A stretch of 64,000 nucleotides of DNA from Gammaproteobacteria bacterium. Its GTDB lineage: Bacteria; Pseudomonadota; Gammaproteobacteria; Ga0077536. The notes under the pieces are model-generated. The model worked only from the letters and a program-made list of their open reading frames with translations, searched no databases and had not been told where the DNA came from. Numbering within the stretch: position 1 is the stretch's first letter; each line of letters starts with the position of its first letter. The stretch spans positions 1,248,001 to 1,312,000 of the forward strand of contig CAXXLL010000002.1 of assembly GCA_963662545.2 (NCBI GenBank), written 5' to 3'. The translations under genes and the position numbers were made by a program. Positions 8,471 through 56,383 of this stretch are shown here, piece by piece.

Positions 8471-8546
8471 TTAACCACAGAGATCACAGAGCTTATCTAT
8501 TAAATATTGGGTATTTCTCTGTGCACTCTGTGATCTCTGTGGTTAA
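8471..8546. repeat. CACAGAG-type palindromic element
   Basis: Perfect 21-bp inverted repeat TTAACCACAGAGATCACAGAG / CTCTGTGATCTCTGTGGTTAA around an AT-rich core, plus an extra CTCTGTG unit. Confidence 0.85.
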
Positions 8547-8684
8547 AAATCCCTAACAAAATTCTTACCAGAGTCGCCGCCGAGTTCTTCCATTGCCCGG
8601 TTTTTGTATGATGGGAATGAAATCGTTCTGCCTTTCGGCGCCGCCCGGAACGGTCGGCTTAGCGCTGAGGCGAGGGGAGCATTC

Positions 8685-8999: not shown

Positions 9000-9005
9000 C
9001 GGGCG

Positions 9006-9446: not shown

Positions 9447-9484
9447 AGGCCGCAACCCACGGAACCAATCAAGAGCGCCGCGCG

Positions 9485-10315: not shown

Positions 10316-10350
10316 GTCCGGGAAAAAAGGGACACACTTTCATAGTCTGG

Positions 10351-11394: not shown

Positions 11395-11468
11395 TGAATC
11401 TTCCTCCGGCGATCTCGGTACTGATTTTGCTAGGGGCGGTTTCTATCACCGCTGCGGTGTTTTCGGAG

Positions 11469-13746: not shown

Positions 13747-13836
13747 CCAACCCTGCCTCGTCGGCCGCGCTCATGCGCGGCTGTGAACACATCCGTTCCC
13801 GCACTTCGCCAGGGCGTAGACCCCGAGGAGGCGTTG

Positions 13837-15150: not shown

Positions 15151-15151
15151 C

Positions 15152-20482: not shown

Positions 20483-21340
20483 ATGAGCAAGCCACTGAGT
20501 ATTCAGCAATTTTTCAAGCATTTCCCGAACGATGACACCTGCCTGCAGCATCTGATGCTGAGCAAGTATGGCGAAACCCTTGATTGCCCGAAATGCGGCA
20601 AGCACGGCAAGTTTCACCGCATGAAGAAGGAACCTGCTTACGAATGCCAGTGGTGCGGACATCATCTTCACCCGATGGCGGGCACGATTTTCCACCGCTC
20701 TCACACGTCGCTCCAGAAGTGGTTCTACGCGATCTACCTGTTCACTACGACTCGGCATGGCGTGGCCGCCAAGGAATTGCAGCGCCAGTTGAGCGTGACC
20801 TATAAAACAGCGTGGCGCATGGCCCACCAGATCCGCAAGCTCATGGCGAAAGCCGACGGCGAGTGGCCGCTGAGCGGGACCGTCGAAGTGGACGAAACCT
20901 ACGTGGGCGGAAAGGTCAAGGGTAAGGGACGGGGCTACCGGGGCAACAAGGCCGTGGTATTCGGCATGATGGAGCGGGGCGGCGACGTGATGACCAAGGT
21001 CGTCCCAAACGTCCGCAAAAAGACCCTGCAGCCGATCATTAAGGCGAATGTCGAAGAAGGTAGCACCGTGCATACCGACGAGCTTAAGTCTTACAACGGG
21101 CTTGAGAAGGCCGGATACGACCATGAGACGGTTAATCACGGCGCTGGCGAATATGCGAAGGACGGCTGCCATGTAAACACGATGGAAGGCTATTGGGCGC
21201 GGCTCAAGCTTTCGATCCGCGGGACGCATGTCCATGTTTCCGGGAAGCACCTTGAGAAGTACGTGAAGGAGTTTGAGTACCGCTACAACCGCCGCCGGAA
21301 CCCCGAGCGGATGTTTGATCATCTGCTGGCAAGTCTTTAG
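20483..21340 (+). CDS. IS1595-family (ISXO2-like) transposase
   Basis: Zn ribbon CPKC..CQWC, GTIF, LSGTVEVDETYVGG, VHTDE..SY, VNH, HVNTMEGYW, YVKEFEYRYN. Confidence 0.96.
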   Translation: MSKPLSIQQFFKHFPNDDTCLQHLMLSKYGETLDCPKCGKHGKFHRMKKEPAYECQWCGHHLHPMAGTIFHRSHTSLQKWFYAIYLFTTTRHGVAAKELQRQLSVTYKTAWRMAHQIRKLMAKADGEWPLSGTVEVDETYVGGKVKGKGRGYRGNKAVVFGMMERGGDVMTKVVPNVRKKTLQPIIKANVEEGSTVHTDELKSYNGLEKAGYDHETVNHGAGEYAKDGCHVNTMEGYWARLKLSIRGTHVHVSGKHLEKYVKEFEYRYNRRRNPERMFDHLLASL

Positions 21341-35061: not shown

Positions 35062-36641
35062 ATGGGGACGATTTTCAAAAGTACGCTACGGGTCTTTTTG
35101 ATCGGGGTCATCGCGCTTGCGGCGTGGGCCGAAGAGATCCCCGTCGTGCGCTTCACGGTCAGCGGCTTTCAGGTGACTGGCGAAAACCCCGTCGACGCCG
35201 CCGAAACCGAACGCATTCTCGCCGAGTACACGGGCGAGTACGCGGGCCTCGACGGGTTGCTCGCGGTCGTCGACGCCTTCCAGTCCGAACTCAATGCACG
35301 CGGCTTCGCCTTTCGCCGCGTGATCCTGCCGCCGCAGACCCTCGACGGCGGGATCGTGACCCTGAAGATCGTGCTGATCAAGCTCGCCAGCGTCACCGTC
35401 GCCGGCGCCGAGCATTTCTCCGAAGCCAATATCTTGCGCAGCGTGCCGGCGCTCCGCCCGGATCTCTCGCCGGACCAGGACCTTTTGAGCGGCAGCCTCG
35501 AACTCGCCAACCGGCACCCCTCAAGCAGGTTTCGGTGCGCCTGCGCGAGAGCGAGCAGGTCGACGCCGTGGACGCCATCATCGACGTCCAGGATCGGCGC
35601 CCGTGGCAGTTGTTCACCTTGCTCAACAACATCGGTACGCGCGACACCGGGCGCACACGGGTTACTTTCGGCGCCCAGCACAGCAACCTGTTCGATCGGG
35701 ATCACAGCCTGGTGGTGTCGTACACGACCTCGCCGGAAAACCAGAAGGACGTCATGCAGGCGGGCGCGAGCTACGATCTACCGCTGTATTTCGCGCGCAG
35801 CAAGCTGTCCGCGTTCTTTTCGGAATCCGACGTCAGCGTCGGCGAGGTCAGCGGTTTCGACATCAGCGGTGCGGGCCGCTTCTGGGGCGTGTCACTGACG
35901 CGCCTGCTGAAGCGCCGCGGCAGCTATTCGCACGAATGGCGGCTCGGGATCCAGGACCGGTTCTTCGAAAACGACGTCAATTTCATCGCCGCCGGCACCC
36001 GTGTGCCGCTCGGCGTCAACGTGCGCAGCTACCCGGTCACGGTGGGCTACAGCGGGCAATACGAAACAAGTACCTGGAACATCGGCTTCAACGTCGATTA
36101 CTCGCGCAACCTCGGCTTTGGCGACCGCAACAACGATGCAATCTATGAAGTCTCGCGCGCTGGCGCGAGCTCCGGCTGGGACGCGCTCCGCTTCGATGCA
36201 GCGGTGAACTATTTTTTGCCCTGGGACCTGCTCGCCCGGTTCGAGGTCAACGGGCAGTGGTCGAACGAACCCTTGATCGCCGGCGAGCAGTTCGGCCTGG
36301 GTGGGGCGCGCTCGATCCGCGGATTGGACGAACGGGTGGTGCTGGGGGACAGCGGCTTTCGCCTGGGTACGGAGATCTGGTCGCCGCCGATCCCCTACGC
36401 CTTGGGATTGCGGCTGCTGGGATTCGTCGACCTGGGTTTCATCGACCGCGCCGAGGCACTGCCGGGTGAAGTGGAATCGGACACGGTGTCGAGCGCGGGC
36501 TTGGGGCTGCGCTGGCAATGGCGCGGACTGAGCGTGAACCTGGATTACGGCCATACGCTGGCCGAGGGCGAAGGCCTGACGGCGCTGGCGGACGACAGCT
36601 ATGGCGTGCGCTGGCATTTCAATGTTTTTTACACTTTTTAA
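35062..36641 (+). CDS. ShlB/FhaC/HecB two-partner secretion transporter (TpsB); -1 frameshift at ~35517-35520
   Basis: POTRA (F.V.G.N..RVILPPQTLDGGIVTL) in frame 35062. Barrel (NNIGT..TG..R, NLFDRDH, EQFGLGGARSIRG, SAGLGLRW, C-terminal F) in frame 35124. One extra C in CACCCCTC would join them. Confidence 0.9.
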
Positions 36642-36753
36642 CATTTGCTCAACATCTGCGCGCAATGGTTCGCAGTTGGGCACGCACAAAACGGTAGAAT
36701 TGGCCAGCAATAAGAACAATTTAGGCTCCCGCACCGTGACACCTAGGGAGGGT

Positions 36754-39700
36754 GTGTACTTGCGACGAACGGCAAGTCTCTACGGCCTCATCCTCGGCTT
36801 GCTCGTCGGGTCGCCGGCGCTCGCCAATCCGCAGGGGGGCGTCGCGGTGCACGGCCAGGTATCGGGGCTGCCCGCGCCCGGTGTCAACGTCCCGAACCTG
36901 CGCATCACCAACTCCCCGAGTTCGATCATCAACTGGCAGTCGTTCGGCATTCGTCCGGGCGAGATCACCCAGTTCATCCAGCAGAGCGCGCAGTCGGCCG
37001 TTCTGAATCGCGTGGTCGGCGGGAACCTCTCGCAACTCATGGGTCAATTGAAATCGAACGGCCGCGTGTTCCTGCTCAATCCGAACGGCATCATCGTCGG
37101 GCAGGGCGCGGTGATCAATACGGCCCGTTTCATCGCCTCGACCCTCGACATGACCGACGAGGATTTCATCGCCGGCAAACTGCGGTTCACGGGTGACGGC
37201 AATTCCGGTTCCATCGAGAACCGGGGATTCATCAAGGCGAACGACCAGGGCGACATCCTCCTGGTTGCGCCGTCCATTCGTAACGAAGGCACACTCTCGA
37301 CCGACGGCGGTCGGCTGATTCTGGCAGCCGGAGAATCGGTCACGATCACAAGCCTCGACGACGTCAAGGTGCAGTTCGAGATCCAGGCGCCCGACAACGA
37401 GGTCGTCAATCTTGGGGAGATGATCACTTCGGGCGGTGCCGCTGCGGTATTCGCCGGCACAATTCGCAACAGCGGAACCGTCAATGCGAACAGCATCGCC
37501 GTCGACTCGCAAGGTCGCATCCAGCTGGTAGCGAAATCCGATCTCACGCTCGAACAAAGTTCGGTCCTCACGGCGGATGGCCCCGCGGGCGGTGTTATCG
37601 AAGTCGTAAGTGCGGAGGCGACGACTATCGTCCGTGGCGAGCTCTCGGCCGAGGGGGCTGCTGACGTGGGCGGACGCATCCATTTGCTGGGCGATCGCGT
37701 CGGCGTTGGTGCCGGTACGGAAATTTCAGTAGTTGGCGAAACGGGAGGCGGTGAAATTCTCGTCGGTGGTGACTATCAGGGTGTGGGCGATACACCCACC
37801 GCGAGTCAAACCTTTGTCGGGCCCGACGCGATATTGCAAGCCGATGCAGCCGCAAGTGGTGATGGGGGCAAGATCATCGTCTGGGCGGACGAGGCGACGC
37901 GCTTCTACGGTCAGGCAAGTGCGCGCGGCGGTGAAGAATCGGGTGATGGTGGCTTCGTCGAGATCTCCGGTAAGCACCATCTGAAATTCGAGGGCGAGGT
38001 TGATACCACGGCGGCGAATGGACAAACGGGCACCCTGCTGCTGGATCCCGACGACATCGTCATCCACAACGGCGGCGGCCAGCTCGATGACGGCGAGATC
38101 GGTTTCGCCGACGGCCTGATCGACTTCGCCGACGGCGGCTCCGTGACCTTCGATATCTCGGAGCTCGCGGTCGAAGGTATCGGCTCAGCGACGAACGTGA
38201 TTTTTCGCGCCAACAACAGCATCACGATCAATTCCTTGACGAGCGACGGCGTGCTCAGCCTGGACCAGACGACCACGGTGACCTTCGAGACGGGCGCCGG
38301 CGGTTTCACGATGAGCAGTTTCGATGAGATCGACCTGACCGGAGGCGCGTCACTGACCATTGACGCCACCGCGGGCACTGGCTCTGGTGGCGTGACGATC
38401 GGGAGCATCACGACGACATCGTTCGGCGCGGTCGATATTACCGGAACCTCGATCCAGATCGACGGCGCCGTCATCACCGATTCCGGGGCCATCACTTTCA
38501 CCGCCACGGCGGGCGACATCAATCTAGACACGGTCAATACAAACACGGGCGCTATCATCATCAACGCATTGTCCGATATCAACGTGGCCGCCGATCTTAG
38601 GGTCACGACCAGTACGGGATCGATCAATCTCGACGCTGATACCGACGGAGACGGGACCGGTACGCTGACGGTTCAAGACGGTGCGACGCTCAGCAAGGCG
38701 GGGCTCGGGGTTCTGACCATCACCGCGGCCGATATCGATTTGCAGACGACGGGCGCCATTGATGCCGACCAGGGTCAGATTCAAATATTCGCGACGAACA
38801 ACGGCAACATATCGGTCGGCACTTCGACTTCGAGTTGCGGTGGCGCCTGCGAGATGATCATCGACGCATCCGAACTGAGCCGTATAACGATCGCCAACCC
38901 CGGACTGTCGATGACGGTCGGTGACAACACGCATGCAGGCATCTTCGTCGGTCCGATTACGGAGCCGCAGAGCAACGGTATTACCGGAGGCATATTCATT
39001 CAATCAGGCGGCAGCGTTACGTTCGAGGGCGTAGCGACCTTTAACGAGCTATCCGCATTCGCGGACCAGGGGGTTTTTGTCAACTTCGATCTGGACACCG
39101 ATGCCGGCAGCCTGGCGCTCGATGGAGATAACGATCTTGTCGGAGGACACGTCATCAGCGTCGCCGACGGTGTGACTATCGCCTCACGCAGCCTGGGCGG
39201 GTTCATCAACCTCGTGAGCGCTACGGATGTCGCCGCGGGCGCAGCGGGTGCCACCTTTATCTCGGACGGCACCATTCAGATCAGCGGCGATTTCGATAGT
39301 ACGGGGCAGACAGGATTCCTCACCTTCTCACTGGACGACGATGATAATGGCGCAGGTAATTTCAACGCCATCGGCGGCGCGAATCTGACGTTCGGCGCAG
39401 CCGAAGTCGTGATTATCGCCGACGACATCGTGATCGGGGCGGCGGGGTCGCTGTCCGGCACCAACCGTTTGAAGTTCGAACCCGCGGACATGGTGACCTC
39501 GATCGGCGTGGGGCAGGCAGGCGACATGACCATCGACGCGACTGAAATTGGATTGATCGCCGACGGATTTGCGGTTGGGTGGTCGATTGGCGTCGGCGGG
39601 TACACGGGTTCAATCGATATCGGCACGGTCAGCTTCAGCGATCCGATCGAGTTTCTCGCAACCGGGGCCGGTGGCAGCATCTCGGTGAACGGTACCTTGA

Positions 39701-42700
39701 CCGGTACCGACGATGCGGAGTTTTTACTGGATGGGCCCGGCGCGACGACGACACTGGCGGGCAATATCCTGACATTCGGTAACGCGATTACCATCAGCGA
39801 CAACGTAGTCTTAAATAGCGCTAGCGTAACGCTCGACACCACGAATGGCGGTAACGCGGGCGGCGCTACCATCACGATCACCGGCACCGTCGACGACACG
39901 GGCGTCGGCGCGAGCAGCCTGACCTTAAACGGCGGCACGAGCGGCACGGTCGATCTGCAGGGGGACGTCGGCGGTGTTACGCCCAACAATCTGTTCACCA
40001 TTGCGGACGCGGGACAGGTCTTCCTGCCGAACGTGACCGCCAACGGCACGATCAACGTCAGCGGCGTAAACATCGATCTCCTCGGAACGACCTATACCAG
40101 CACGACCGACCAGGTTCTCTTCGCGAACGTTGCGACCGTGGACGTGCTCGCCAATGCCACCATCACGGCCGGCGCGAACAACATCGCGGCCGGTACGGTC
40201 AACATCAGCGGTAACACCCTGACCCTGGCTTCAAATGCCGGCATCGAGACCATCAACCTCACCGGCAGCACCCTCTTCGCGCCCGGGATGGTGAATGTGA
40301 CGACGCTGAACTGGAGCGGTATCAGCGAAATCGACGGCGCCGGTACGGGTGCCTTTCAAGTATTGGGTACGACGACGGTGACCGGATCGAGCACCGTGAC
40401 CTTGGACCAGGTGACCTTCCAGAATCCCGGGACGTTTAACTACAACGCGGGCTCCAGCATCTTGACGCTCTCGACCGGCGCGGAGCTCCTGAACCTGAAC
40501 ATATTCAATTTCGTGAGCGGCGCGGGCGTCCTAGCGGGCGCCGGCAGTGGCGTTTTCTTCAATGACGGCGGCACCGTAAATCTCAGCGCGCCATCGCAGA
40601 TCGACACGGCATTCGACAACGACGGCGGTACGGTGGAGCTGGGGACCAGCAACCTGACGGTAACCTCGGGCGGCATCTATGACGGCAGTTTGACTGTCAA
40701 CAGCGCGGGTAGCACCGAGCTGTTTATGATCGGAGGCACCTACCAGTTCAATGCCGGAACGTCGATCGACGGTACGGGCGCGCTGAATTTCGACACCGGC
40801 ACTTGGGATGTCCAAGCAGGTACGTTGACCTTGAACAGCGTCTTGAACTGGACCGCGCCCAGTACCATTGACGGCGGCGGCGTGGGAACTTTCGCTATTG
40901 CCAGTGGGGGTGTGATCAACTTTACCGTTGCCGGACTCACCGCGGCCTCACCGTTCGAGAACATTACCGTCAGTAACGCCGGCACCTTTAACTACAATCC
41001 TGCTACGGCGAGTGCCCTGACCTTGCGTAACGGGGCCATATTCAACAACGAGGTGGGGGGGATCTTCGATTTCCAGGCAGATTTCGTCGTGGTATCGAAC
41101 GCCGGGGTCGGTACGTTCAACAACTTGGGTACCGTGCAAAAGACGGGTGGAGCCGGTACGTCCGGTTTCGTTAGTACAACCGGCACCATGGTCTTCAATA
41201 ACCCCAGCGGGCTGATCGACGTCGACACCGGTCTAATCCAAGTCAATAACAACTTCATCAATGGCGGCACCATCGATGTCGCTTTAGGCACCGAGTTCGA
41301 AGTGACGGGCACGTTCACGAACTCGGCTAGCGGCATCATCCTCGGGATCGGAACCGTCGATCCGGCTGGCGGGGGGAATACGTTATTGAATTCCGGAATA
41401 ATCAGTCCCGGAGTATCACCCGGTATCCTGACCGTCGCCGGCAACGTCACGTTCAGTAACGGCGGTCAGTTCGACGTCGAGTTGGCAGGTTCGGGCAATG
41501 TCGCCGGAACGGATTACGATCAACTCGTCGCCACCGGTACGGTCACAATCGATCCCGGCGCAATCTTGAACCTGATGACGTTCGGCGGCTACACGGGCGT
41601 AACGAACGACATTTTCACTGACATCATCGATGCCACGGGCGCGCTCAATGGCGAGTTCGACACCGTTCTTCAGCCCGGAACCCTCATCGCCCAAACAACT
41701 TATGTCGTAGGAGCGCCGGGAGATTTGACACTCGACGTGCTGGGCACGGGCACCGTTAACCAATGGACCAACCCAGCGAGCGGCAGCTTCAACCTGGGCG
41801 GCAACTGGAGCCTCCTATCCGTGCCTGACACTGGCGAACTCGCCTTCATTGGTATCGGCGGGATTACGGTGTCAAACAGCGGCACAGTTACTGTTGACGA
41901 GCTGTCGCTGGTTTCAAGTTCGACGCTCCAACTCTTGGGCGGCAGCATCACCATAAGCAACGATTCCGTCCTGGATGGCGTTCTCTTGATGAACGGTGGC
42001 GATTTGATCGGGCCACCTAATCTAACCGTCAACGGGCTCCTCGACTGGCGCCAGGGCACGATGTCGGGCGCCGGTACGACGTTCGCGAACGGTGGCATTA
42101 CGGTAACGACGAACAGCGGCAGCCGCCGTTTGAACGGCCGGGACTTGGACAGCACGGCGACGTTCATCCTGGGCCAGATGACGAACTTCACGATCAACGG
42201 CGGGGCGACCTTGGACCAGTCGGGCGGGATCTTCGATCTACGCGGCAACAGCTCAATCAATACGAACACCACCGGCAACGTGGTGAGTTCGGTGCCGGTG
42301 CAGAAGACAGGCAGCTTCAACACCAGTATTTCGACGACGAACTTTACCAACACGGGCGACATTAACGTCAATGTGGATGATCTCGTGCTGACCACCACCG
42401 GTACGCACCTCGAGACGAATGTCACGGCGACGGTGGCGGACGGTACGACGCTGGACATACGGTCATCAACAACGGGGACGTACAACAACTTCGATGTCGT
42501 GTTGGTTGGCGCGGGTTCGACATTCGAGATGGGCGGTACCACCGCCACGCAGACCTACGATGCGGCGAGCAGCATCACGGGTCCAGGCGATGTCATCATC
42601 GCCGCGTCGGGTACGCTGAACTTCCTGGGCCCGACGACGTTTTCGGGGAATTTGAGTCATACGGGTGGAGGGACCACGACGTTTGCGCAACCGGTGAACG

Positions 42701-45700
42701 TGGCGGATTTAACGGTCGGGTTCGGCATCCTGCACCTGGATGGCGCGGGGAACATGGCGGGGACGGGAACCTTGAGCGGAGGCACCCTGACTGGCCTGGG
42801 CGACGTGACCTACTCGGGGTTGTTAGCCTGGTTGGAGGGGACGATGGAGACGACGGGAGCAGCCAAGACGTTCGCGAACGGTGGCATTACGGTAACGACG
42901 AACAGCGGCAGCCGCCGTTTGAACGGCCGGGACTTGGACAGCACGGCGACGTTCATCCTGGGTCAGATGACGAACTTCACGATCAACGGCGGGGCGACCT
43001 TGGACCAGTCGGGCGGGATCTTCGATCTACGCGGCAACAGCTCAATCAATACGAACACCACCGGCAACGTGGTGAGTTCGGTGCCGGTGCAGAAGACAGG
43101 CAGCTTCAGCACCAGCATCGCGACGACGACGTTTACCAATAGCGGCAATATCAACGTCAACACGGGCACCCTGTTCATTTCCCCGAATTTCATCAATACG
43201 GCAACGGCCACAATCGCAAGCGGAACGACGCTCACCTTTGCTGGTACGACGAGTTCGAATGCGGCATCGGGGACCATCCAGGGTACAGGAACACTCAACG
43301 TTTCGAGCACCGCGTTCACGAATAACGGCGTGCTTGGACCGGGCACATCGCCGGGCATCTTCAACATCAACGGTAACGCTACCTTAGCAAACGGCAGTCA
43401 GCTCAACATCGAATTGGCCGGTTCCAGCAACGTCGCCGGTACCGACTTCGACCAGCTCGTCGTCATGGGCACGCTCACTATCGATCCAGGCGCAATACTG
43501 AACCTGACGACCTTCGGCGGCTACACGGGTGTCGTCAGCGACACCTTCACCGACGTCATCGACGCAACCGGCGCGCTGAACGGCGAGTTCGATACGGTAT
43601 TGATGCCGGCGACGCTGATCGCCCAGTCCACCTACGTCGTTGGCGGGCCCGGCGACCTGTCGCTGCTCGTCACTTCGACCGGCACCATCAATCAATGGAC
43701 AAACCCCGCCAGCGGCGCCTTCGACGTGGGCGGTAACTGGAGCCTTGGCGTGCCGAGCGGGACCCACGAGACCGTCATCGGCATCGGCGGTATCACGGTG
43801 ACGCACGGGCTCGCGGTCGCAGACACGGTGTTGTCGCTGTCGCTGGTCGGTTCGTCAACTTTTGCGTTGACTGCCGGCAGCCTCACGATCAACACCAATT
43901 CGATCCTCGACGGCAATCTCTCGATATCCGGCGGCGCGACCTTGCTCGGCGCCGGCGACGTGACCGTAAACGGAACCTTTAATGCGAACACCACGAGCAT
44001 CATCGGCACCGGCACCGAAAAATTCATTACTAACGGAACGAGCAACATCAGTGGTGCTTTCGGGCTCGACTTAAGGCCCTGGGATAACTTCGGTACCGTA
44101 AATTGGACGGCTGGGGATATTACCCTGGCGTTCGGTGCCTCGTCGGTATTCACCAACGAGGCCGGCGGGATTTTCAACATCAACACCGGTTTGAGTAGCG
44201 AAGACATCAACGGCGCGGGCAGTTTCGTCAACGATGGCGTGGTCAACAAGAACAGTAATCTGACGACGTCGTTCAACGTCCCGGTGACCAACACCAACGC
44301 CTTCAACCTCACGATGGCCCAGGTCAGTCTGCGTCAGACGAGTAGTAACACCGGCACGTTCTCGCTCTCGGGCGGCACGACCTTGGCAGTGGCGAATGCT
44401 TCGACCTTGAACCTGAATCTGAATACGGCGGTGATGGGGACGGGCACGGTGCTGGTGGAGCCTGGCACCACCTTGAGCGTGAACGTACCGGTGGCGATGG
44501 CGACGGGGTTCAACGTCCCGGTGACCAACACCAACGCCTTCAACCTCACGATGATCCTGACGAATGACGGCACGATAGCGAATGCCGAGAACCTGACCAT
44601 TCCGAACACCTTCAATCTGGACGGCGGGTGAGTGGCGATGCGGTGACGGGGACGGGCACGTTCACGACGCCGGCGACGAGTACGACGACGCTGAATGGTG
44701 GCACCAACACGCTGGGCGCGGGTCTGGCGTGGGACAGTTTCGGGCTGGTGAACTGGACGGCGGGTGATTTCACGCTGAGCGATGCGGGGTCGGTATTCAC
44801 GGTGGAGGCGGGTGCGCCGAGTATCTTCAACATCAACACCGGTTTGAGTAGCGAAGACATCAACGGCGCGGGCAGTTTCGTCAACGATGGCCACAAGCAG
44901 TAATGGGGACAAGTCGTTCAACGATCCCGTGACAACACAACACGTCTTCAATGTTCCATTCACCAATACCGGCACCGTTGTCGTCCAAAACGGCACGCAG
45001 CTCCATAACGTTTCACATATCCAGACCGCTGGCATCACCCTGCTTATCGGCGGTTCGATCGCGGGAACGGCCGCGCTCAATATCGATGGCGGTGTGCTTC
45101 AGGGCGGGGGCATTGGCAACATCAGCACCAATATCAACATCAACAGCGGCGGTGCCTTGGGTCCGGGTTTGTCGCTCGATACGATGAACGTGACGGGCAA
45201 TGTCGTGTTCAACAACGGCGGCGCTTATAACGTGGAAGTGGCCGCTGGACTTGCGTCTGACGTACTCAACGTAACGGGTAGCGTTACCATCAACGCGGGC
45301 GCGATCCTGAACGTTTCGGCCTTCGGCGGCTATACCGGCGTGGTGTCGGATAATTTCACCGGCGTCATCGCTACGACCGGCGCGTTGAACGGTACGTTCA
45401 CCACGATCAACCAGGATCCGGGTTTTAACGTGGCACCTTCGTACACTGTCGGCGGCCCGGGCGATCTGTCACTGCTCGTATCCGGCTTTACGAATATCTG
45501 GATCGGGCCGCTGGGCGGCGGATTATGGAGCGTGCCTGGAAACTGGTCTCTCATCGCGGTTCCGATCGCCTCGCACGACGTCCTGTTCAACACGGCTGCG
45601 AACGTCAACCAGAATATCGGCGGCACCATCAATTCCATCAACACCATCGCCGGATCAACGCTGACCAATACCAGCGGTACGCTGACGATCAATAGCAATT

Positions 45701-48700: not shown

Positions 48701-51700
48701 GGGCTGACGAACAACAACATCGTCAACGCCAACGGCGGCAAGACCGCGATCAATACCAACGGCACGGTCACGGGCGCGTTCAACATCGGGCCCAGCGGCA
48801 TCCTGGCGGTGACCAGCGGCACGACGGTGTTCGACGCCTTGTCCAGCATCACCGGCACGGGTTCGACGCCTTGTCCAGCATCACCGGCGGGCGGCGCTGT
48901 AAATTTTGATACGAGCGCGACGGTTGATGGCACCTACAACGTCACGGGCAACACGCTCCTACGGAATACGAGTACGGTGGCGACCTTCAACACGGCGGCA
49001 CAGATGGGGAGTCTGACCCTCACCCAGAACGGGCCGCGTCTGACGGGGTCGGGCAATGTCACGGTCACGGGCCTGACGAATTGGGCTGGTGGCGGCACCA
49101 CGATCGACGGGTCGGGGACGTTGTTTGCGAACGGTGGCTTCGACATCAACGCGGGCGGCGGCACGAGCCGGACGCTGAACCGTTTGGTAGTGATTGATGG
49201 CAACAGTACCTGGACGAACAGTTTCTCCAGCAATGTCTTCGGTACGGGCACGATACGGAATCTGTTGGGGAACACCATCACCGCGACCAACACCGCCGAC
49301 TTCAATTTCAATCCTACTTTAGACAACTTGGGCACCTTCACGCAGACGGGCAGCGGCACCTTCAACATCAATGGTGCCCTGACGAACAACAACATCGTCA
49401 ATGTGCAAGCTGGGCGAACCCAGGTTAATTCGACCTTCACGAACAACGGTACGATCAATCTCGGCGGTGGTATTTTCGCCGCGACCGGTGCAACGTTCGA
49501 TAACGCCGGTACGATCCAAGGCACGAGCACCCTGAACGTGTCAGGCACCACGTTCACCAACCAGTCCGGCGGTATTGTTGCGCCCGGCACTTCGATCGGC
49601 ACGATGCTCCTTACCGGCAATGCGATCTTCGCGTCGGGCAGCATCTTCCGCGCTGAGGTCGAGAACGGCACCTCCGACGTGCTGGCCGCGACCGGCACGG
49701 TCACGATTCAACCGGGCGCCATTCTCGATATCTTGCTGAGCGGCGGCCCGGCCCCCGTGGGCGGCGAGATGTTCAACGTCATCACAGGCGCCACGGTTAT
49801 CACTACGTTTGACACGGTACTCGAGCCGGTCGGCTTGAGCTTCGGGCAGGCGAATCCCGGGGGCACGGCGCTGGAACTCACCTTGCTGGGCGGCGCCAAC
49901 ACTTGGACGGGCCCGCTGGTCGGCGAATTCTGGGGTAACGCCGGCAACTGGACGCTGGGCGTGCCGTCGATGTTCGACGACGTCATCATCAATACCGCCG
50001 CGACCATAACGCACAATTTATTGGTTGCGGACACCATCAATTCACTGACCACGATCGCGGGATCGCTGCTGGATATGACCGGCGGATCCCTGGATATCGT
50101 CGTCAATTCGATCCTGGGCGGTGAACTCCGTCTGGCGGGTGGCGACGTTGGTGGGGCGGGGAACCTGACGGTCAATACGCTGACCCACAGCGCCGGTACG
50201 CTCGGTAGCAGTGGCACCGTCATGGTTAGCAACGCGTTCAACTTCAGCGGCGGCACGCTCGCCGCAAATCTCGATACGCTGGCTTCGAGCTCGAACACCT
50301 TGAGCGGCGCCGCAGCCAAGACGATATCGGGCGTAACCTGGAATACCTTTGGCCCAACGAGCTGGACCGCCGGTGATATCAATCTGGTGGGCGGCGCGAC
50401 GATCAACAATCAAAGCGGCGCCGTGTGGAATATCTTGACCGTCGGGTCCGCCGACGATATGCAGGGCGCCGGTACCTTCAACAGCCTCGCCAGCAGTACA
50501 GTCAATGCCAACGCGCCGGGCGGCTCCAACAGCATCCATCCGACAACGGTAAATCATGCTGGCACCATTAATGTGCTTTCGGGCGATCTGGACTTTGCCG
50601 GTCCGGGCACCTCCATTTTCACCTTCAGCGGGCCGATCAATTTTTCGAATGGCACTCGGATCAAGCCCTACACCTTCGCTGGAGCCCCGACCTTGAATTT
50701 CAACACGGGTACGAGCATCAGTGTTGTGTCCGGTACCGCCGAGATCCTTGTCGACGTTAACGTGCCGGTGAATTTCAACGCGCCGCTGGTCATGCCGAAC
50801 AACTTCGCGTTGAATCAGAGCAGCGGTACGGTCACGGTCAATGCAGCCGTGACGGTCGGCGATTTCAACCAGACCGGTGGAACGTTCACCGGCGCTGGCA
50901 ACCTCACGGCGACGAACAGCTTCACGCAGTCCGCTGGCTCGCACGCCGGAGCTGGCATGACGACACTGGGTCCGGCGGTCGTCTTCGCGCCCGGCGGTTA
51001 CACTTTCAATCGGCTATTCGACATCGACGGAACGCTCAACCACGGCGTCGGCACCTTGACCACGAATAACCTCGTGAATATCGACGGCGCGTTTAACTGG
51101 ACCGGTGGAACGGTAATGGGGAACTTCGCTACCGGTGCGACGAGCAATACGACGATCAACGGTACGTCGATCCTCGACGGCACGATGACTAGTGCGGGAG
51201 TGACGCAGGTCAATGGATTGCTGCAGGTACAGACCGGCGGCGTTATCAATGTAATCGGAGGCGTCTTCGGCGGCAACGGTGTCATCGACGTATCGTTGGA
51301 CACGGTGACGGCGGGGACCTCTCCGGGATTCTTGTCCATCATCGGGAATTTCACGCAGGGAGCGCTGGGTACCTTATTAGTGGATTTAGCCGCTCCGGGA
51401 TTGACGCCTGGGGCGGACTTTGACTTCATCAGCATCACGGGCACGGCGAATCTGGGCGGCACCTTGCTGGTGAATCCGCTGGGCGGTTTTATACCGCCAA
51501 CGGGGACCGGTTTCGACATTCTGAACTTCAGCGCGGTGAACGGAAATTTCGCCAGCATCGCGAGCACGTCCACGCAGACGTTCAGCGGTGTGCCGGGCGC
51601 GACGAATTTCGTGTTGACCGCGGGCACGCCGCCGGCGATACCGATGATGCCGATAATGATGGAGCCCGAGTCCGCGCCACCCTTGCCGCCGCCCAATCAG

Positions 51701-51865
51701 GAAGCGAACGTCATTGGCGATATCGGCGGCAGCGGCATCGGCAGTGGATTCGGCGACGGTACCGGCACAGACGGCGATGGCGACGGTGACGATGACGGGA
51801 GCGGATCGGATGGCTCAGACGACGGTGACGGTGACACCCCACTGCCGCAACTCTGCAGCGCCTGA
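36754..51865 (+). CDS. Giant filamentous-haemagglutinin-like TpsA exoprotein (~5000 aa); broken by frameshifts at ~44630-44900 and ~46120-46350
   Basis: Signal peptide ..SPALA-NPQGG; TPS domain INWQSF, VLNRV.G, NGRVFLLNPNGI; GGFVEISG, GTLLLDP; continuous Gly/Thr/Asn beta-helix repeats across ORFs 36601, 44628, 44887 and 46451. Confidence 0.88.
42079..43108 (+). repeat. 241-bp near-exact intragenic direct repeat (42079-42319, 42868-43108)
   Basis: Encodes TFANGGITVTTNSGSRRLNGR...QKTGSF twice; one nucleotide difference noticed. Confidence 0.9.
45754..47576 (+). repeat. 364-bp intragenic repeat in three copies (45754, 46466, 47213)
   Basis: DIIVTGLTSWSG...ADFQMTF three times; offsets 712 bp (out of frame) and 747 bp (in frame). 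Confidence 0.92.
48377..49401 (+). repeat. ~350-bp intragenic direct repeat (offset 675 bp)
   Basis: GNVTVTGLTNWAG...LTNNNIVN twice with a few substitutions. Confidence 0.88.
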
Positions 51866-51867
51866 AG

Positions 51868-53313
51868 TTGATTTCGCGCATGAATTTAAATCGCCCGGAC
51901 TCGTGTTCATACTTCATCGCGCTCACGCTGTTGCTCGTCGTGAGTGCCGAGGTGAGTGCCGCGCCCGCCGGCAAGATCGTCGCGGCGCGCGGCGCCGTTA
52001 CCATTCAATCGGCGGAAGGGGTGGCGCGGCTGGTGGGACGTGAAGATCCGATCTTTTCGGGCGATGTTCTGACCACCGGCAAGAAGAGCTTCGCTATCCT
52101 CGAGTTCAACGACGACACGCGTATGGCGCTGCGTCCTGATTCCGTGTTCAAAGTAGAGCAGTGGAGTATCGAACCCGAGCAGGAGAGCGCGGTGACGCGG
52201 TTGTTCAAAGGCGGCCTGCGCGCGGTCACGGGGTTCATCGCGCGACGCAATTCCCGGGCGTTTCGGGTGAATACCTCGGTTGCGACGATCGGGATCCGCG
52301 GAACGACCTTTGACGCGCGGTTGTGCGAAGGGGGCGAGTGCGAGGAGGATGCCCGGGCTGCCTCCGGGTTAACGGTTCCGCGCAGCCAGGCGATCGGTCG
52401 CGTCGCCTTCGTGAAGGGCACCGCGACGTCCCGCAAACGGGATGCCAACTACGCGCGCCCGGTCGCAGCGGGATCGCCGCTGTACGAAGGCGATACCGTC
52501 TCGACTGCGCCGAATTCCTATGCGGTCTTGATCTTCAAGGATCGCAGCCGAGTGACCCTGCGCGCGAACACCGTGTTCGAGATCGAGGCGATGAAGTACA
52601 CGGAGGACAAGGCGGACGAAGATTCGTCCGTGATGCGGCTGGTGCGGGGGGGCTTGCGTGCGGTCACGGGCTTCATCGGCAAGCGCAATGCCAGCCGCGT
52701 ACGTTACCGGACGGCGGTCGCGACCATCGGCATCCGGGGCTTTGGCTTCGATCTCGTATGCATAGACGCTTGCGGCGCGGACGCCCAATCGAGCACCTGG
52801 AATCTTGGCGACATGATCTTACCGAACGCATACGCCGCTGACGCGCTACCGCCCGGCTTGCTGGCGAGGTCGTGGTTAAGCGATATTTTCGCCTTAATTA
52901 ACGGCCGGGAATTCGAGATCCCCGAAGGTAAGGTGATCTTCATTCCACTGTCGTCATTAATTCCGCAGGAATTACTGCAAATGCCGTTCGAGATCGAAGA
53001 GCCGCGCCCTAATGACGTCGACCTGGACGAAGACGCGTTGTTTGAATACGGTCAGAGCCAGGAGGGCGCGGATGGCTTGCATGTCGCGTGCCTCGAAGGA
53101 ACGGCCTGCGCCGTCGGCGACGAGATCCTGGCGGTCGGCGAAGGCTTATATACCAGCGAAGACGGCACCACGGTGATCCGCACGGCATATGCCGCGGGCT
53201 TCCTTGTCAATGACAAATACTTCAAGACCATTGACGTACCACCGGACGTGCTCGATCTGCTTTACAACCTCGATGCCGCGGATGGCGCCGTCGGTGAGTG
53301 TACGGCGCAGTAG
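51868..53313 (+). CDS. Exported protein with two tandem FecR-like domains
   Basis: Signal peptide; two copies of GD...T...S.A.L.F.D....L...F...L..GGLRAVTGFI....T.VATIGIRG; Cys pairs after each domain. Start may be ATG 51880. Confidence 0.88.
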   Translation: MISRMNLNRPDSCSYFIALTLLLVVSAEVSAAPAGKIVAARGAVTIQSAEGVARLVGREDPIFSGDVLTTGKKSFAILEFNDDTRMALRPDSVFKVEQWSIEPEQESAVTRLFKGGLRAVTGFIARRNSRAFRVNTSVATIGIRGTTFDARLCEGGECEEDARAASGLTVPRSQAIGRVAFVKGTATSRKRDANYARPVAAGSPLYEGDTVSTAPNSYAVLIFKDRSRVTLRANTVFEIEAMKYTEDKADEDSSVMRLVRGGLRAVTGFIGKRNASRVRYRTAVATIGIRGFGFDLVCIDACGADAQSSTWNLGDMILPNAYAADALPPGLLARSWLSDIFALINGREFEIPEGKVIFIPLSSLIPQELLQMPFEIEEPRPNDVDLDEDALFEYGQSQEGADGLHVACLEGTACAVGDEILAVGEGLYTSEDGTTVIRTAYAAGFLVNDKYFKTIDVPPDVLDLLYNLDAADGAVGECTAQ

Positions 53314-53340
53314 AAATCGCTGACGATCATTATCCAGCGA

Positions 53341-53398
53341 AGCAAAAGGGGACATTCAACTTTTTCGATTTCGAAAAAGTTGAATGTCCCCTTTTGCT
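53341..53398. terminator. 58-bp perfect palindrome between convergent genes (bidirectional terminator or REP-like)
   Basis: AGCAAAAGGGGACATTCAACTTTTTCGA-TT-TCGAAAAAGTTGAATGTCCCCTTTTGCT. Confidence 0.75.
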
Positions 53399-53415
53399 CC
53401 CCCTTTTTCTCGCAG

Positions 53416-55029
53416 TTACCGGCCTTCGACGATGAATGCGCCGTTGATGGAGAAGGGTGGATAGGAAGGTTGGGACGTGTTGCCCTGAAATGCTCCGGTC
53501 ACGGCCCCGGCGGCCACGCCATTGATCGCAAGGCCGGCCGGCCCGAAGACCGTCGTGCCAAACATTGTACAGCCACTGTTACACATGCCGCCGGCGCCGG
53601 CGGCGATATCGGGCGCGGACCCGGCGGGTACCGTGATCGAGCTTGCGCCCGAATTGAAGAAGAGAAACCCGTTATTGATTTTATTTGTAGTAGGCATGAA
53701 CGACTGCAGTTTGAAATGGGAGCCGCTCGGGAAGGTGCCGGGATCCGGGTTGTCCGGATGGGCGAGGCCGGGCGGTGCCACTTCGACCAGGAAGTTGTCG
53801 ATGTTGCCGCCGTTCGTGTAATCGACTTCAATGCGGACGTAGGTGCGGACGTTCGCGACTTCCGTCAGGGTGTTCGAGCCGGCAGTGAGAGCCGCCAGGG
53901 TGCCGCCGATGTCCTGGTCATAGATCAACTGGACGCCCACCGGCAATTCGTTATCGGGCGTCGGTTCCGTCGACGCGATCCAGGTGAAGTGCCCGACCGA
54001 TTGCACGATGGCCCCGAAGAAATCAGTCACTGTCCAAAGGTTGATCACGCGGCCCCATTCGGTGGCATAAGTATTATTGAAGGTAGAGCCATCCGGCGCG
54101 GGGTCGACCACCTCCATACCGCTGTTGCTCGTAAACACACAGGTTTCACACGGGAACCCCGTGAACCACTCGAAAAAATCCAGTGAGCCGAAGGTCGCGG
54201 TATTCAACATACCGTCCGTTTCCTCGCCGTCCGCCAGGCTGTTGAGATTCATCCCGGTGTCGATGAAGGGAAACGCAACGCTGATGTGGGTGCCATCCGG
54301 CGCCGGACCCGCGGGAATCGGTCCTTCGGCGGTTTCCAGCGGTACCTCGCCGCTTTCGAAATCCCGCTGTTCTTCCTCGGGGTCGTAATAGGTCAGGTCT
54401 TCCTGATCACCCGCGCCGTCGACCGGCAGGCATGGCGAGTTGCAGATGTATTCGCCGGGACCAAGGTCGGACTCTAGGCCGGTGTCCGGATCGGTGGCGG
54501 TGAATCCGCCGAAGTCGACGTTGATACGCAAACTATCCGGCGTGAGGTAGCGGAAATAACCGCCGCTGCCGCGGATGCCGATGGTGGCGACCGAGGTCCG
54601 CAGACGCCAGCCCGAGCGGTTGGAGCGGGCGATCGCGCCAGTGACCAGGCGCACGCCGCCGCGGACGAGGTTGAAGAAACTGCGGCTGCGGCTGGGCGCG
54701 GCGTCGTCGTAGCTGTAATCCTCGAAGGCGTATTCCGTTTGGGGGTTGAGCGCGATGAAACTGCCGTCGGTCAGTTTGAGCTGTGCACGGCCCTTGCCGG
54801 TGACGACGGTGTCGCCGGAGGCGATGAAATCCCCACGCTTCACGGAGCGCCGGCTGCCGCTGGCATCGGTGGCGCTGACATCGCCGATGGCGTAGATGAT
54901 CTTGGCCGCATGTGAAGCCGCGACGGCGGAGGCCGGGGCCAGCGCCGCAGCGAAAAGAAAGAGTACGGCAGCGGCCGTCGAAGTCAGGAAAGCCGGAGCC
55001 CTGAAGGAAGTCGAGTTGTCAGAAGTCAT
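53416..55029 (-). CDS. Exported FecR-domain protein with beta-rich C-terminal domain
   Basis: Signal peptide; GDV.A..G..R.V.RG..I.SGD.V.T..GRAQL..TDG, L.RGG.R.VTG.I, TSVATIGIRG; acidic linker; C-terminus ..GAVTGAF..SINGAFIVEGR. Confidence 0.82.
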   Translation of the reverse strand: MTSDNSTSFRAPAFLTSTAAAVLFLFAAALAPASAVAASHAAKIIYAIGDVSATDASGSRRSVKRGDFIASGDTVVTGKGRAQLKLTDGSFIALNPQTEYAFEDYSYDDAAPSRSRSFFNLVRGGVRLVTGAIARSNRSGWRLRTSVATIGIRGSGGYFRYLTPDSLRINVDFGGFTATDPDTGLESDLGPGEYICNSPCLPVDGAGDQEDLTYYDPEEEQRDFESGEVPLETAEGPIPAGPAPDGTHISVAFPFIDTGMNLNSLADGEETDGMLNTATFGSLDFFEWFTGFPCETCVFTSNSGMEVVDPAPDGSTFNNTYATEWGRVINLWTVTDFFGAIVQSVGHFTWIASTEPTPDNELPVGVQLIYDQDIGGTLAALTAGSNTLTEVANVRTYVRIEVDYTNGGNIDNFLVEVAPPGLAHPDNPDPGTFPSGSHFKLQSFMPTTNKINNGFLFFNSGASSITVPAGSAPDIAAGAGGMCNSGCTMFGTTVFGPAGLAINGVAAGAVTGAFQGNTSQPSYPPFSINGAFIVEGR

Positions 55030-56383
55030 TGCGTATGGTCACCATGAATTCCACGCGGTCGAAATCGTTGACGATGATGTTCGAGTCGTTGTTGGTATAA
55101 CTGAGGTGCGGTGTCAGGCTCCAGTTACCGTCGAAGCGGTAGCGGTAGCCGATGTTCACATCGAAAAAGTCGTCGTCACGCCTGCTGCCGAAAATCGGAT
55201 CGTCGGCGTTGTAGTCGCTCGCCTGGTAGGTCACGGAACCGAACAGGGAACCGCGCGGGCCGAGCAGCCGACGCCCGCCGATCCGAACACCGAAAAATTC
55301 GCGATCGAAATGCTTGCCGCAACCACAGGCCAGGCCGGTGCGGGCGCGATCGTTCTGTGAATTTTCGACCCCGCCGAAAGCGCTCGCGAAAATGACCGGG
55401 CTACCGGCCATCTGCGGCATTGCATGTGCCACGCCGACGCCGCCCGAGTAGCGGTTGACGTTGCGTACTTGCTGTTCGGGGTAGCGAATCAGGGCGGCCT
55501 GGTCGAACAGGCTGACCTGGGTATTGTCGTTGTAGATGTGCCGCCACTGCAGCACCGCGGCACCGAGTTGACGGTCACTGTTGGAAATGCCGGGACCATC
55601 GACGAAGTATTTTTCGCCCTGGACAATGAGGCTGTACTGATTCTGATCACGCGTCAGTTGAAAACCGGTGTGACCCCTGGCATGGGTGGTGGTGAAATCA
55701 CTATCGCGCAGCGCGATGCTGTAGTTGAAGTCGATGCCGCCGACCAGGCGCAGATCCGGCTGCAAGGGTGAAGTGAACGAAAAACCCGCACCGATATCCC
55801 ACTTGGTGCTGTCCAGTTCGCGCGAATCGTTGGCGAGTGCGAACACTAGGCCGCCCGCGGCTGGTGAAGCGGTGACCGCACCGCGATCAGTGGCATTATT
55901 GACGTTGGTATCGAAGCCGAGGCCCGTCGTCACGTAGCGGGCGAAAGAAGTGCGGTAGGCGCCGTGATACTGATCGATGGCAGCGAGGTAGCTCTCCATT
56001 ACCCGCCTGACCCCGTCCGGCGGATCTTGTTTCTTTACTATTTCGAGTTCGCGCCGGGCCGCGTCGGTCTCGTTCGCGCGCATCAATGCACGGCCGAGTT
56101 CGGCGCGCGCCGGTCCGTGATTCGGGTCCTGATCGACAACGCGTTGTAGCGCGAAGATGGCCTCGGTATTGCGCCCGCTGTCCAATGCGGCGAGACCGAG
56201 CAGATAGTCGAACGCCGGATTGCCGGCTTCGTCATCTTCCATGGGTTTCAGCAGGTCGTAAGCCTGCTGCGCCTGGCCCGCGTCGAGCAGCGATTTGGCT
56301 TCGCGCAGCGCGGAATCTTCAGCGGCGCCAGCGGCGAAAGACAGAAAAAGGGTTAACAGGAGACAGAACCTGAAACGATTCAC
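55019..56383 (-). CDS. TPR + outer-membrane beta-barrel protein (Slam/DUF560, T11SS-like)
   Basis: Signal peptide, TPR (YLLGLAALDSG...ARAELGRAL), GFDTNVN motif, alternating beta strands, RDD, N.SNI..F.R and terminal Phe. Confidence 0.82.
   Translation of the reverse strand: MNRFRFCLLLTLFLSFAAGAAEDSALREAKSLLDAGQAQQAYDLLKPMEDDEAGNPAFDYLLGLAALDSGRNTEAIFALQRVVDQDPNHGPARAELGRALMRANETDAARRELEIVKKQDPPDGVRRVMESYLAAIDQYHGAYRTSFARYVTTGLGFDTNVNNATDRGAVTASPAAGGLVFALANDSRELDSTKWDIGAGFSFTSPLQPDLRLVGGIDFNYSIALRDSDFTTTHARGHTGFQLTRDQNQYSLIVQGEKYFVDGPGISNSDRQLGAAVLQWRHIYNDNTQVSLFDQAALIRYPEQQVRNVNRYSGGVGVAHAMPQMAGSPVIFASAFGGVENSQNDRARTGLACGCGKHFDREFFGVRIGGRRLLGPRGSLFGSVTYQASDYNADDPIFGSRRDDDFFDVNIGYRYRFDGNWSLTPHLSYTNNDSNIIVNDFDRVEFMVTIRNDF

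Follow-up and report, generated by a model that had tools for sequence, protein, structure and literature searches.

Gene organization of the locus

The DNA analysed here is a stretch of 64,000 nucleotides (the window) from a Gammaproteobacteria bacterium (assembly GCA_963662545.2, contig CAXXLL010000002.1, positions 1,248,001 to 1,312,000). Its region 35062..56383 contains seven notable reading frames, which form two operons that run towards each other, one for two-partner secretion (TPS, type Vb) and the other resembling the Slam/type 11 secretion system (T11SS). Each of them ends in a gene for a protein with FecR-like domains.

On the plus strand, a frame-broken gene for the type Vb transporter TpsB (35062..36641; families POTRA_2 and ShlB) is followed by a giant tpsA gene of about 5,000 codons, which extends from 36601 to 51865 in at least four pieces of open reading frame (ORF). 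The TPS secretion domain lies at 36913..37509 (PF05860 and TIGR01901), and the codon of a lone Cys near the TpsA C-terminus, which is translated as ...PQLCSA, lies at 51854..51856. The third gene (51868..53313) encodes a secreted protein of 481 residues (FecR2) that contains PF04773 twice and is called the tandem-FecR protein below. On the minus strand, the gene of a probable outer-membrane protein of the Slam/T11SS type, which has 454 residues and combines tetratricopeptide repeats (TPR) with a barrel (55019..56383; TPR_19 and a weak SlipAM match), overlaps by 11 nt the gene of a FecR-headed T11SS cargo candidate of 537 residues (53416..55029; PF04773 and an AlphaFold 2 (AF2) model).

The ends of the two operons are separated by 103 nt that contain a perfect, unstranded palindrome (53342..53397) with 27-nt arms and a TT centre. 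Its RNA fold has an energy of -48.7 kcal/mol (z -10.8), which none of 200 shuffles equalled, and it is likely a two-way terminator hairpin. A genome-wide repeat was considered and rejected: in 5.58 Mb, the arm was found only as its own two arms and at four sites with two mismatches.

The ORF coordinates, the TPS and FecR families and the perfect palindrome agree with the arrangement that the initial annotation of this DNA had described. The translations likewise bear out the motif that it had assigned to all three FecR-like domains, GG.R.VTG.I...T.VATIGIRG, which is followed by T, F and S, respectively, so that the motifs end in RGT, RGF and RGS. Its statement that these domains follow signal peptides holds for the first domain of the tandem-FecR protein and for the cargo candidate, but not for the second domain of the former; the assessment of signal peptides was made by eye and with the help of the model helices rather than with a signal-peptide predictor. 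The reported absence of sigma factors, TonB receptors and CHASE2 from the locus was also reproduced. No sigma-70 r2/r4, TonB-receptor/Plug or CHASE2 family was found among the locus proteins or among 36 further ORFs of the window (E <= 1e-5), and the window ORFs scanned contain no kinase family.

Independent conservation of the two operons

The surroundings of tandem-FecR genes were examined in two sets, 80 named loci of the genome collection (mostly from uncultured Gamma- and Betaproteobacteria) and a class sample that comprises 400 further genomes of the same class. Of the 80 named loci, 76 have TpsB next to the tandem-FecR gene, 72 have a TPS domain there and 70 have both; some TPS part is present in 79, and the only named locus that lacks one is a 2.9-kb contig. 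None of the 80 has a Slam-like barrel within 10 kb of that gene. The class sample gave 15 loci, the short contigs G099 and G153 being left out. TpsB and a TPS domain are both present in 11 of these, TpsB only in one, and a TpsA body that runs up to the contig end in two; the remaining locus has a barrel beside the tandem-FecR gene and no TPS genes. The order of the three genes varies (B-F-A, A-F-B and B-A-F), and in the loci L038 and L039 stop and start codons within the trio overlap. In a single scan of the collection, 547 stretches were found to encode a relative of the tandem-FecR protein; one isolate record, Aquabacterium sp. A7-Y (locus L146), is listed there.

The minus-strand pair shows an association of its own. 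Outside this genome, in the 400 genomes of the class sample, a FecR-domain gene adjoins the barrel gene in 49 of 61 barrel matches and nearly always lies just downstream of it (31 cases were read by hand and 18 of 20 came from a neighbour scan; a further two stop where their contig ends, and the neighbour count does not take in ten weak rows). All 18 of the barrel-neighbour proteins that were tested exceed the FecR cut-off.

A full-length match to the tandem-FecR protein is present in 13 of the 400 class genomes. Five of these also hold a barrel, which is either on a different contig or at a distance of about 296 kb. Two genomes of the same family possess the trio and have no barrel match at E <= 1e-10. 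The genome of the window itself contains three tpsA/tandem-FecR/tpsB trios, one TPS pair without a FecR gene, and a second pair of barrel and FecR protein, all at separate places. Each module is thus conserved alone, which makes their meeting here a local event, and we conclude that the locus very probably consists of two separate secretion modules placed tail to tail by chance. It weighs somewhat against the strength of these counts that the named loci and the class sample partly overlap (some class-sample loci are the same records as named loci: L095 is L036 and L107 is L035) and that the relatives are not independent.

The initial annotation had proposed instead one joint system of surface assembly or contact sensing, in which the type Vb and Slam-like operons cooperate through their three FecR domains. 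The operons are indeed adjacent and convergent and share one hairpin, the three FecR domains are very alike, and in one locus (L048) a tandem-FecR protein that is fused to an OmpA-like barrel is encoded directly upstream of a Slam-like barrel. However, an integrated machine is difficult to reconcile with the survey, in which the two operons were never found linked elsewhere: no barrel lies within 10 kb in the 80 named loci, the five trio genomes with a barrel always carry it on another contig or about 296 kb off, the two genomes of the same family have the trio without the barrel, and this genome's own paralogous copies are not linked either. The contact-sensing part of the proposal fares no better, as about 0.9 Mb separates the two CHASE2 genes of the genome from the locus and neither adjoins a FecR gene. 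The lack of linkage largely refutes the joint system, and we consider it very unlikely.

Several of the loci contain further features. In L048 (G213:C12, 8019-16872), the tandem-FecR protein fused to the eight-stranded OmpA-like barrel is followed by the Slam-like barrel (SlipAM 39.1 bits) and then by two FecR-headed proteins, and a GAF-PAS-GGDEF-EAL gene lies nearby on the other strand. The paralogous barrel of the window's own genome (L001, G000:C3:1582000-1598000, 7360-12250) is paired with a FecR-headed protein, after which comes a gene that joins TPR to a family-41 glycosyltransferase; an ISL3 transposase lies upstream of the pair. The third tpsB/tandem-FecR/tpsA locus of the same genome (L070, G000:C2:1438000-1457999) has a tpsB shortened to 325 residues, a tpsA in two pieces and a FecR gene in two parts, between which lie two unrelated ORFs (396 and 448 residues). 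The tail there still ends in ...VLMCF and the FecR part in ...FECTIQ.

Fold of the tandem-FecR protein

The start of TpsA is clearly recognizable as that of a TPS passenger: PF05860 matches residues 53-251 of the ORF 36757-38100 with 100.5 bits (cut-off 33.5, E 1.9e-28) and TIGR01901 matches with 80.2 bits (cut-off 29.1). No Pfam family was found in the TpsA body. In the 481-residue protein encoded next to it, PF04773 (E 1.9e-18) covers two FecR stretches. The AF2 model of this protein is of good quality (pLDDT, the predicted local distance difference test score, 89; pTM, the predicted template modelling score, 0.83) and shows two FecR modules, after which come a C-terminal domain rich in beta structure and a flexible tail that ends in ...GECTAQ. 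The closest solved folds are the cell-surface signalling domain of PupR (CCSSD; Z-score 15.4) and BDI_1681 (Z 14.3). The C-terminal domain (approximately 330-466) found no match of its own above Z 5 among 48,161 chains.

Another relationship concerns the first subdomain of each FecR module, which is homologous to 5ix9, a retention domain of adhesins with repeats-in-toxin (RTX) sequences. The structures superimpose with an rmsd of 1.9 over 75 of 76 residues at 28% identity (Z 7.6), and the profile match to 5ix9 has an E of 2.5e-5. The family model for LapA's retention module, NF033682 (retention_LapA), reaches 47.0 bits on the tandem-FecR protein and remains below its cut-off of 50. The 5ix9 structure is the cell-surface anchoring domain of a Marinomonas RTX adhesin and, according to the covered part of the LapA work, was the template on which the retention module of LapA was modelled (bioRxiv 10.1101/198937). 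Among 96 longer relatives, 18 combine FecR with RTX repeats, and FecR is at the N-terminal end in all three that were checked. None of these 96 longer matches (843-2405 residues) contains FecR and a TPS domain in one protein, which is weak evidence.

Both FecR proteins of the locus begin with a helix that resembles a signal peptide, continue directly into a FecR domain and have no cytoplasmic or transmembrane part beyond it. The window also contains neither a sigma factor nor a TonB transducer, and the earlier view that these FecR-like domains do not serve as anti-sigma factors is upheld. Across 74 tandem-FecR sequences, G145-T146 and G291 are invariant and T292 is present in at least 90%. The protein of the window has a Phe at position 292, after the second IGIRG, and keeps Gly-Thr at the first site.

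Paired terminal cysteines

The C-terminal ends of the tandem-FecR protein and of TpsA share a telling feature in their Cys residues. The number of mature Cys residues is odd in 72 of the 74 tandem-FecR proteins, and in all 74 the last Cys is 2-6 residues from the end; C478 of the window protein is invariant. The tail that contains this last Cys has a pLDDT below 50. The same Cys pattern is found in 76 of 77 complete tandem-FecR frames in the named loci. The TpsA of the window has a lone Cys three residues from its C-terminus, after an acidic Gly/Asp tail, and all 13 FecR-linked TpsA proteins have such a lone Cys at position -2 to -4 after an acidic linker. When these 13 tails are aligned, only G54 and the terminal Cys are invariant. 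Among the TpsA frames of the named loci that reach a stop codon, 38 of 44 end in a Cys. Of seven TpsA proteins from the same genomes that lack a FecR neighbour, none contains a Cys in its last 180 residues.

A shorter version of the trio shows the same ends. In L077 (G204:C92) and L078 (G302:C61), tpsB is accompanied by a tpsA of 1,400-1,500 residues, which ends in ...AMCR or ...QLCQ, and by a single-FecR protein of about 250 residues, which ends in ...DCP or ...DCQ. The two single-FecR variants of 250 residues thus also carry a Cys in their tails (..DCP and ..DCQ).

A possible periplasmic stopper for the TpsA fibre

These observations can be combined in the following mechanism. TpsB would export the TpsA fibre N-terminus first, and the last residues of TpsA, i.e. 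the acidic linker and its one Cys, would stay in the periplasm. There, the terminal Cys of TpsA would form a disulfide bond with the unpaired Cys in the C-terminal tail of the tandem-FecR protein. The latter would be a folded periplasmic protein of 45 kDa that is too large for the TpsB pore, and for this reason it would work as a stopper in trans that holds the fibre on the cell. From the gene context, the fold and the Cys pattern we infer that such a disulfide forms, that the FecR protein resides in the periplasm and that it has a role in retention. A three-partner type Vb system with a disulfide-linked periplasmic stopper is the reading of the trio that we favour, and we put its chances at slightly under even. 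The earlier suggestion that the FecR folds serve as periplasmic anchors gains from both the 5ix9 homology and the paired terminal Cys residues; the companion suggestion of one joint system does not survive the linkage survey.

Four points weigh against the stopper. The control group of unlinked TpsA proteins is small (seven from five genomes). Six of the 44 TpsA frames have no terminal Cys; three of these are short and broken, and the other three have 1,316-2,019 residues. The terminal Cys of TpsA and that of its FecR partner could each serve another partner or a modification. Finally, the TPS genes of the window are broken, so the three-partner mechanism may not operate in this organism. A complex prediction for the tandem-FecR protein (residues 30-481) with the TpsA tail gave a score of 0.04 (mark 0.32) without controls and counts neither way.

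The similarity to PupR raises another explanation, namely a role as a signalling adaptor in the periplasm. The tandem-FecR protein would read the state of TpsB and TpsA, much as the C-terminal domain of FecR binds the signalling domain of TonB transducers, and would relay it to a membrane sensor (a CHASE2 cyclase or kinase) encoded elsewhere. Besides the closest solved folds, the PupR signalling domain (Z 15.4) and BDI_1681 (Z 14.3), this explanation can draw on the secreted LysM-FecR proteins that are encoded with CHASE2 kinases in Burkholderia, as described in the covered part of PMC5192318. However, the window ORFs scanned contain no CHASE2, sigma or kinase family, both CHASE2 genes of the genome lie about 0.9 Mb away and beside none of its 11 FecR matches, and the paired terminal Cys residues are left unexplained. 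We regard a signalling role as fairly improbable.

Alternatively, the tandem-FecR protein could assist TpsA in the periplasm as a chaperone or secretion factor, or it could be exported together with the fibre as its cap, with the Cys bond formed outside or in transit. The tight coupling of its gene to tpsB and tpsA, with overlapping stop and start codons in L038 and L039, and the constant adjacency of the three genes in spite of their varying order would suit such a role, and systems of the HMW1 type do have a third partner (PMC3983070, covered in part). On the other hand, the tandem-FecR protein has no TPS domain, so TpsB would have no known way to take it, and from what is known of type Vb secretion a folded, disulfide-rich protein of 45 kDa is unlikely to pass through the TpsB pore. 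The terminal position of both Cys residues also suits a tether better than a chaperone. A chaperone or cap therefore appears still less probable than a signalling adaptor, and the stopper in trans remains our preferred explanation of the trio.

The TPR/barrel protein and its FecR-headed partner

The minus-strand barrel protein consists of a signal peptide, a TPR region and a C-terminal barrel. TPR_19 matches residues 66-123 with 52.3 bits; TPR_Slam reaches only 20.4 bits, below its cut-off of 35.2. A barrel of 14 strands is a feature of Slam/T11SS outer-membrane proteins. The corresponding family, SlipAM (DUF560, PF04575), is matched at E <= 0.01 by 14 of 21 homologues of the barrel, one of which, at 29% identity, scores 39.1 bits. 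The ten nearest named Atlas clusters among those listed are TPR/barrel proteins of the Slam type, and nine of them list SlipAM, in 22-94% of their members. Judged by these sequence comparisons, the barrel family is probably a divergent SlipAM/DUF560 branch.

The cargo candidate is composed of a signal peptide, a FecR-like head (approximately residues 40-200), a low-confidence linker rich in acidic residues and Pro (202-240), and a lobe (245-537) that resembles the handle and barrel of TbpB. PF04773 matches it in one stretch (36.9 bits, E 5.2e-9). The protein is rare, as about eleven full-length relatives were found in 5.8 billion proteins. In the AF2 model, which has a mean pLDDT of 61, the head (70-208) is most similar to the PupR signalling domain (Z 14.6). 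The lobe matches the C-domain of NHBA (Z 10.2) and the C-lobe of TbpB (Z 9.6), followed by LbpB, fHbp, hemophilin, HphA and HpuA, with hemophilin, HphA and HpuA at Z 7.7-8.2; the Atlas leads for the lobe are at 0.82-0.85. HpuA and HphA belong to the T11SS cargo. The covered part of a published cargo survey (PMC12282271) counts TbpB, LbpB, fHbp and hemophilin among the known cargo of type 11 secretion. In 11 of the 96 longer relatives, FecR and TbpB_B_D occur in one protein, and in all four that were checked both domains exceed their cut-offs, FecR being N-terminal and TbpB_B_D C-terminal. The profile of the cargo family, when compared with solved structures, found only 5ix9 at a weak E of 0.087 and RACK1 at chance level. 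Within the family G154 is invariant, and the residue after it is Ser in eight of ten members and Thr in two.

Taken together, the fold matches to known cargo, the SlipAM matches of the barrel homologues and the Slam-type Atlas clusters support the earlier assignment of this operon as Slam/T11SS-like with its cargo, and a T11SS pair with a FecR-headed cargo is the likely identity of the two genes. The cargo would be exported by Sec without being lipidated, its FecR-like head would be joined by a flexible linker to the handle-and-barrel lobe, and that lobe would represent the feature that marks known type 11 cargo. We read the combination of a FecR head and a TbpB-like lobe as a new class of type 11 cargo. 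Three results detract from this assignment: SlipAM gives only 18.9 bits on the barrel protein itself, below the cut-off of 22, over profile positions 11-288 of 288; the lobe is seen in a model of pLDDT 61 that was built from ten sequences; and TbpB_B_D (PF01298) is found by sequence in none of the ten members of the cargo family. For the two modules considered as a whole, a T11SS pair beside a type Vb system with a stopper, we put the chances a little above even.

The place of the head after export is a separate matter. If it stays in the periplasm as a plug, its role would parallel that of the tandem-FecR protein. The whole cargo could, however, be released or displayed outside in the manner of hemophilin, and the head would then be a ligand-binding effector. 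Published T11SS cargo proteins have their effector in the N-terminal part and use the C-terminal barrel for targeting (PMC12282271, covered in part), and Leptospira proteins with FecR domains are reported, in the covered part of PMC13719327, to be surface proteins that bind host factors. Against an exposed head, it can be noted that the head shares a subdomain with the module that retains RTX adhesins (27.4 bits for NF033682, whose cut-off is 50; 5ix9 at the weak E of 0.087), which is not decisive, and that it is attached through a low-confidence linker of 40 residues. In addition, FecR is found at the N-terminal end of the RTX adhesins in three of three checked. Type 1 secretion runs C-terminus first, and this N-terminal end stays in, which is likewise not decisive. 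We consider an exposed head rather unlikely.

The neighbours of related barrels vary. L049 and L050, which contain the closest relatives of the barrel (43-45% identity), have a small FecR protein (231-263 residues) upstream of the barrel and a FecR-headed protein of 523-536 residues downstream. In L055, L056 and L058, the sole neighbour of the barrel is a FecR protein of 250 residues, which is too short for a TbpB-like lobe.

Decay of the type Vb genes in this genome

Neither the tandem-FecR gene nor the T11SS pair is broken. The initial annotation had treated tpsB as a single ORF and the giant tpsA as a single gene, and neither description holds. POTRA_2 (E 3.1e-11, 43.4 bits) is found in the frame of 35062 and ShlB (E 5.5e-27, 95.5 bits) in the frame of 35124. 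Both families are above their cut-offs, yet they lie in two different frames, and the frame changes at a run of four C near 35516-35519, so that the POTRA and barrel parts are separated. The tpsA gene is split into pieces at 36601-44631, 44632-44886 (in the third frame), 44887-46323 and 46451-51865. Tandem copies that are 100% identical occupy 45637-47489 with spacings of 712 and 747 nt.

Such breaks could be assembly errors, in which case the type Vb system would be intact in the living organism. They do fall at a homopolymer and inside tandem copies of 100% identity, and other long genes of this genome are also split. For tpsB, this explanation is contradicted by public sequencing runs, whose contigs were compared with the window over 35062-37500, the first 2.4 kb. 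The contigs of all four runs, from four studies, are free of any indel at the tpsB frame change, and a 244-nt contig of a 2019 run equals 35376-35619 without a difference. Two of the runs differ from the window elsewhere and hence are not copies of it. The contig of one run lacks 6 and 2 bases at 36755 and 36986, at the start of tpsA, which indicates a related population with a further frame change in the same gene. Because the public contigs agree with the window at the frame change, we take the tpsB break to be real and find a wholesale assembly artefact improbable. Identical short pieces of the tpsB region also occur in runs labelled as sponge metagenome, and the whole region occurs in six runs of four other coded organisms.

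With its frameshifted tpsB and fragmented tpsA, the type Vb part is probably decaying or dead in this genome. Both further tandem-FecR trios of the genome are broken as well, and its paralogous barrel carries an in-frame TGA. Elsewhere in the window, a permease of the MacB type (670-1905, minus strand) is apparently split, with its MacB_PCD and FtsX pieces in separate ORFs, which appears to be another sign of gene decay in this genome. An IS1595-family transposase (20483-21340, plus strand) lies downstream of a resistance-nodulation-division efflux operon (families OEP, HlyD and AcrB, 13783-19605).

Comparison with known systems

The minus-strand pair agrees with Slam/T11SS systems (those with soluble cargo of the hemophilin type, Hpl, HphA and HrpC, and those with TbpB, LbpB, fHbp and HpuA) in that a TPR-plus-barrel protein is encoded beside a Sec-exported protein, and in that the C-terminal half of this protein models as a handle plus a barrel, for which these cargo proteins are the best solved matches. 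It differs from them in its FecR-like head. The covered part of the cargo survey lists roughly ten architectures, none of which has a FecR head (PMC12282271). Other differences are that the cargo candidate has neither a lipobox nor TbpB_B_D at the sequence level, that the window ORF scan found no TonB receptor or metal genes near the pair, and that it is carried by environmental bacteria, for the most part uncultured Gamma- and Betaproteobacteria.

Two TPS adhesins provide the nearest parallels for the proposed retention of TpsA. HMW1 of Haemophilus influenzae, the partner of HMW1B, is held on the cell by a C-terminal Cys feature. CdrA of Pseudomonas aeruginosa, with its transporter CdrB, likewise combines a TpsB with a TPS-domain TpsA, and Cys residues at its extreme C-terminus are tied to its retention through the pore according to the covered part of bioRxiv 10.1101/198937. 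There, the pair of Cys residues forms a hook within one molecule, whereas the TpsA studied here has one terminal Cys and its proposed partner Cys belongs to a separate protein of the same operon. No gene for a LapG-type protease was seen in the window by family scans of the locus proteins and the further ORFs.

The RTX retention module of the LapA/MpIBP type (5ix9) shares with the tandem-FecR protein a homologous first subdomain and, in the mechanism suggested above, the job of a periplasmic plug that halts full export. In contrast to that module, the FecR protein would be supplied in trans rather than fused, would act at a TpsB pore rather than a TolC-like one, and would be attached to the C-terminal rather than the N-terminal end of the passenger. 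The trio also has no RTX repeats and no type 1 secretion context, and NF033682 stays under its cut-off of 50.

The anti-sigma factors FecR, FoxR and PupR have the FecR fold in common with the proteins of the locus (PupR at Z 14.6 and 15.4), and the conserved Gly-Thr/Ser after IGIRG recalls the self-cleavage site Gly-191/Thr-192 of FoxR in the covered part of PMC11637429. The proteins of the locus differ from these factors in that they lack both a cytoplasmic anti-sigma domain and any membrane helix other than the signal peptide, with neither an extracytoplasmic function sigma factor nor a TonB transducer nearby. In the LysM-FecR proteins (COG4254) that accompany CHASE2 kinases and in LipL45 and Lsa33 of Leptospira, a signal peptide is directly followed by a FecR domain, as is the case here, and the NCBIfam models for LipL45 and Lsa33 match the FecR proteins of the locus weakly. 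However, as far as the covered parts of PMC5192318 and PMC13719327 go, those proteins are not encoded with TpsA/TpsB or Slam-type barrels, and the genes described here have no CHASE2 neighbour.

Discussion

Both modules look undescribed in the literature searched. It yielded no description of FecR together with TPS or TpsB, or of FecR together with T11SS or DUF560, subscription journals and supplements (such as File S1 of PMC12282271 with its cargo clusters) being outside the coverage. Where FecR is mentioned in T11SS papers, it refers only to neighbouring iron regulators, and the word 'FecR' does not occur in the covered part of PMC12282271.

The recurrence of the FecR-like fold invites a broader, speculative idea. 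It might be a general stopper of outer-membrane export at whichever end of a passenger is the last to leave the periplasm, fused to the N-terminus in RTX adhesins and in a large class of type 11 cargo from environmental bacteria, and disulfide-bonded in trans to the C-terminus of TpsA in a three-partner type Vb family that is widespread, and the Gly-Thr/Ser after IGIRG could be a self-cleaving release site. We regard this generalization as doubtful. If it is true, retention by a FecR-type plug would be one mechanism common to three unrelated secretion systems.

To our knowledge, how giant type Vb fibres are retained on the cell is understood for only a few pathogens (FhaB, HMW1 and CdrA). A dedicated third gene with paired terminal Cys residues would be a new and easily testable answer to this question. 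For the other module, the lists of type 11 cargo come almost wholly from host-associated bacteria, and the cargo of most environmental clusters is unknown, as stated in the covered part of PMC12282271. A FecR-headed cargo, encoded beside 49 of the 61 barrels in the subfamily, would partly close this gap. Although the copy in the window is partly dead, the findings at the level of the families are testable and broad, and they would widen the meaning of the label 'FecR domain', which annotation pipelines read as iron signalling.

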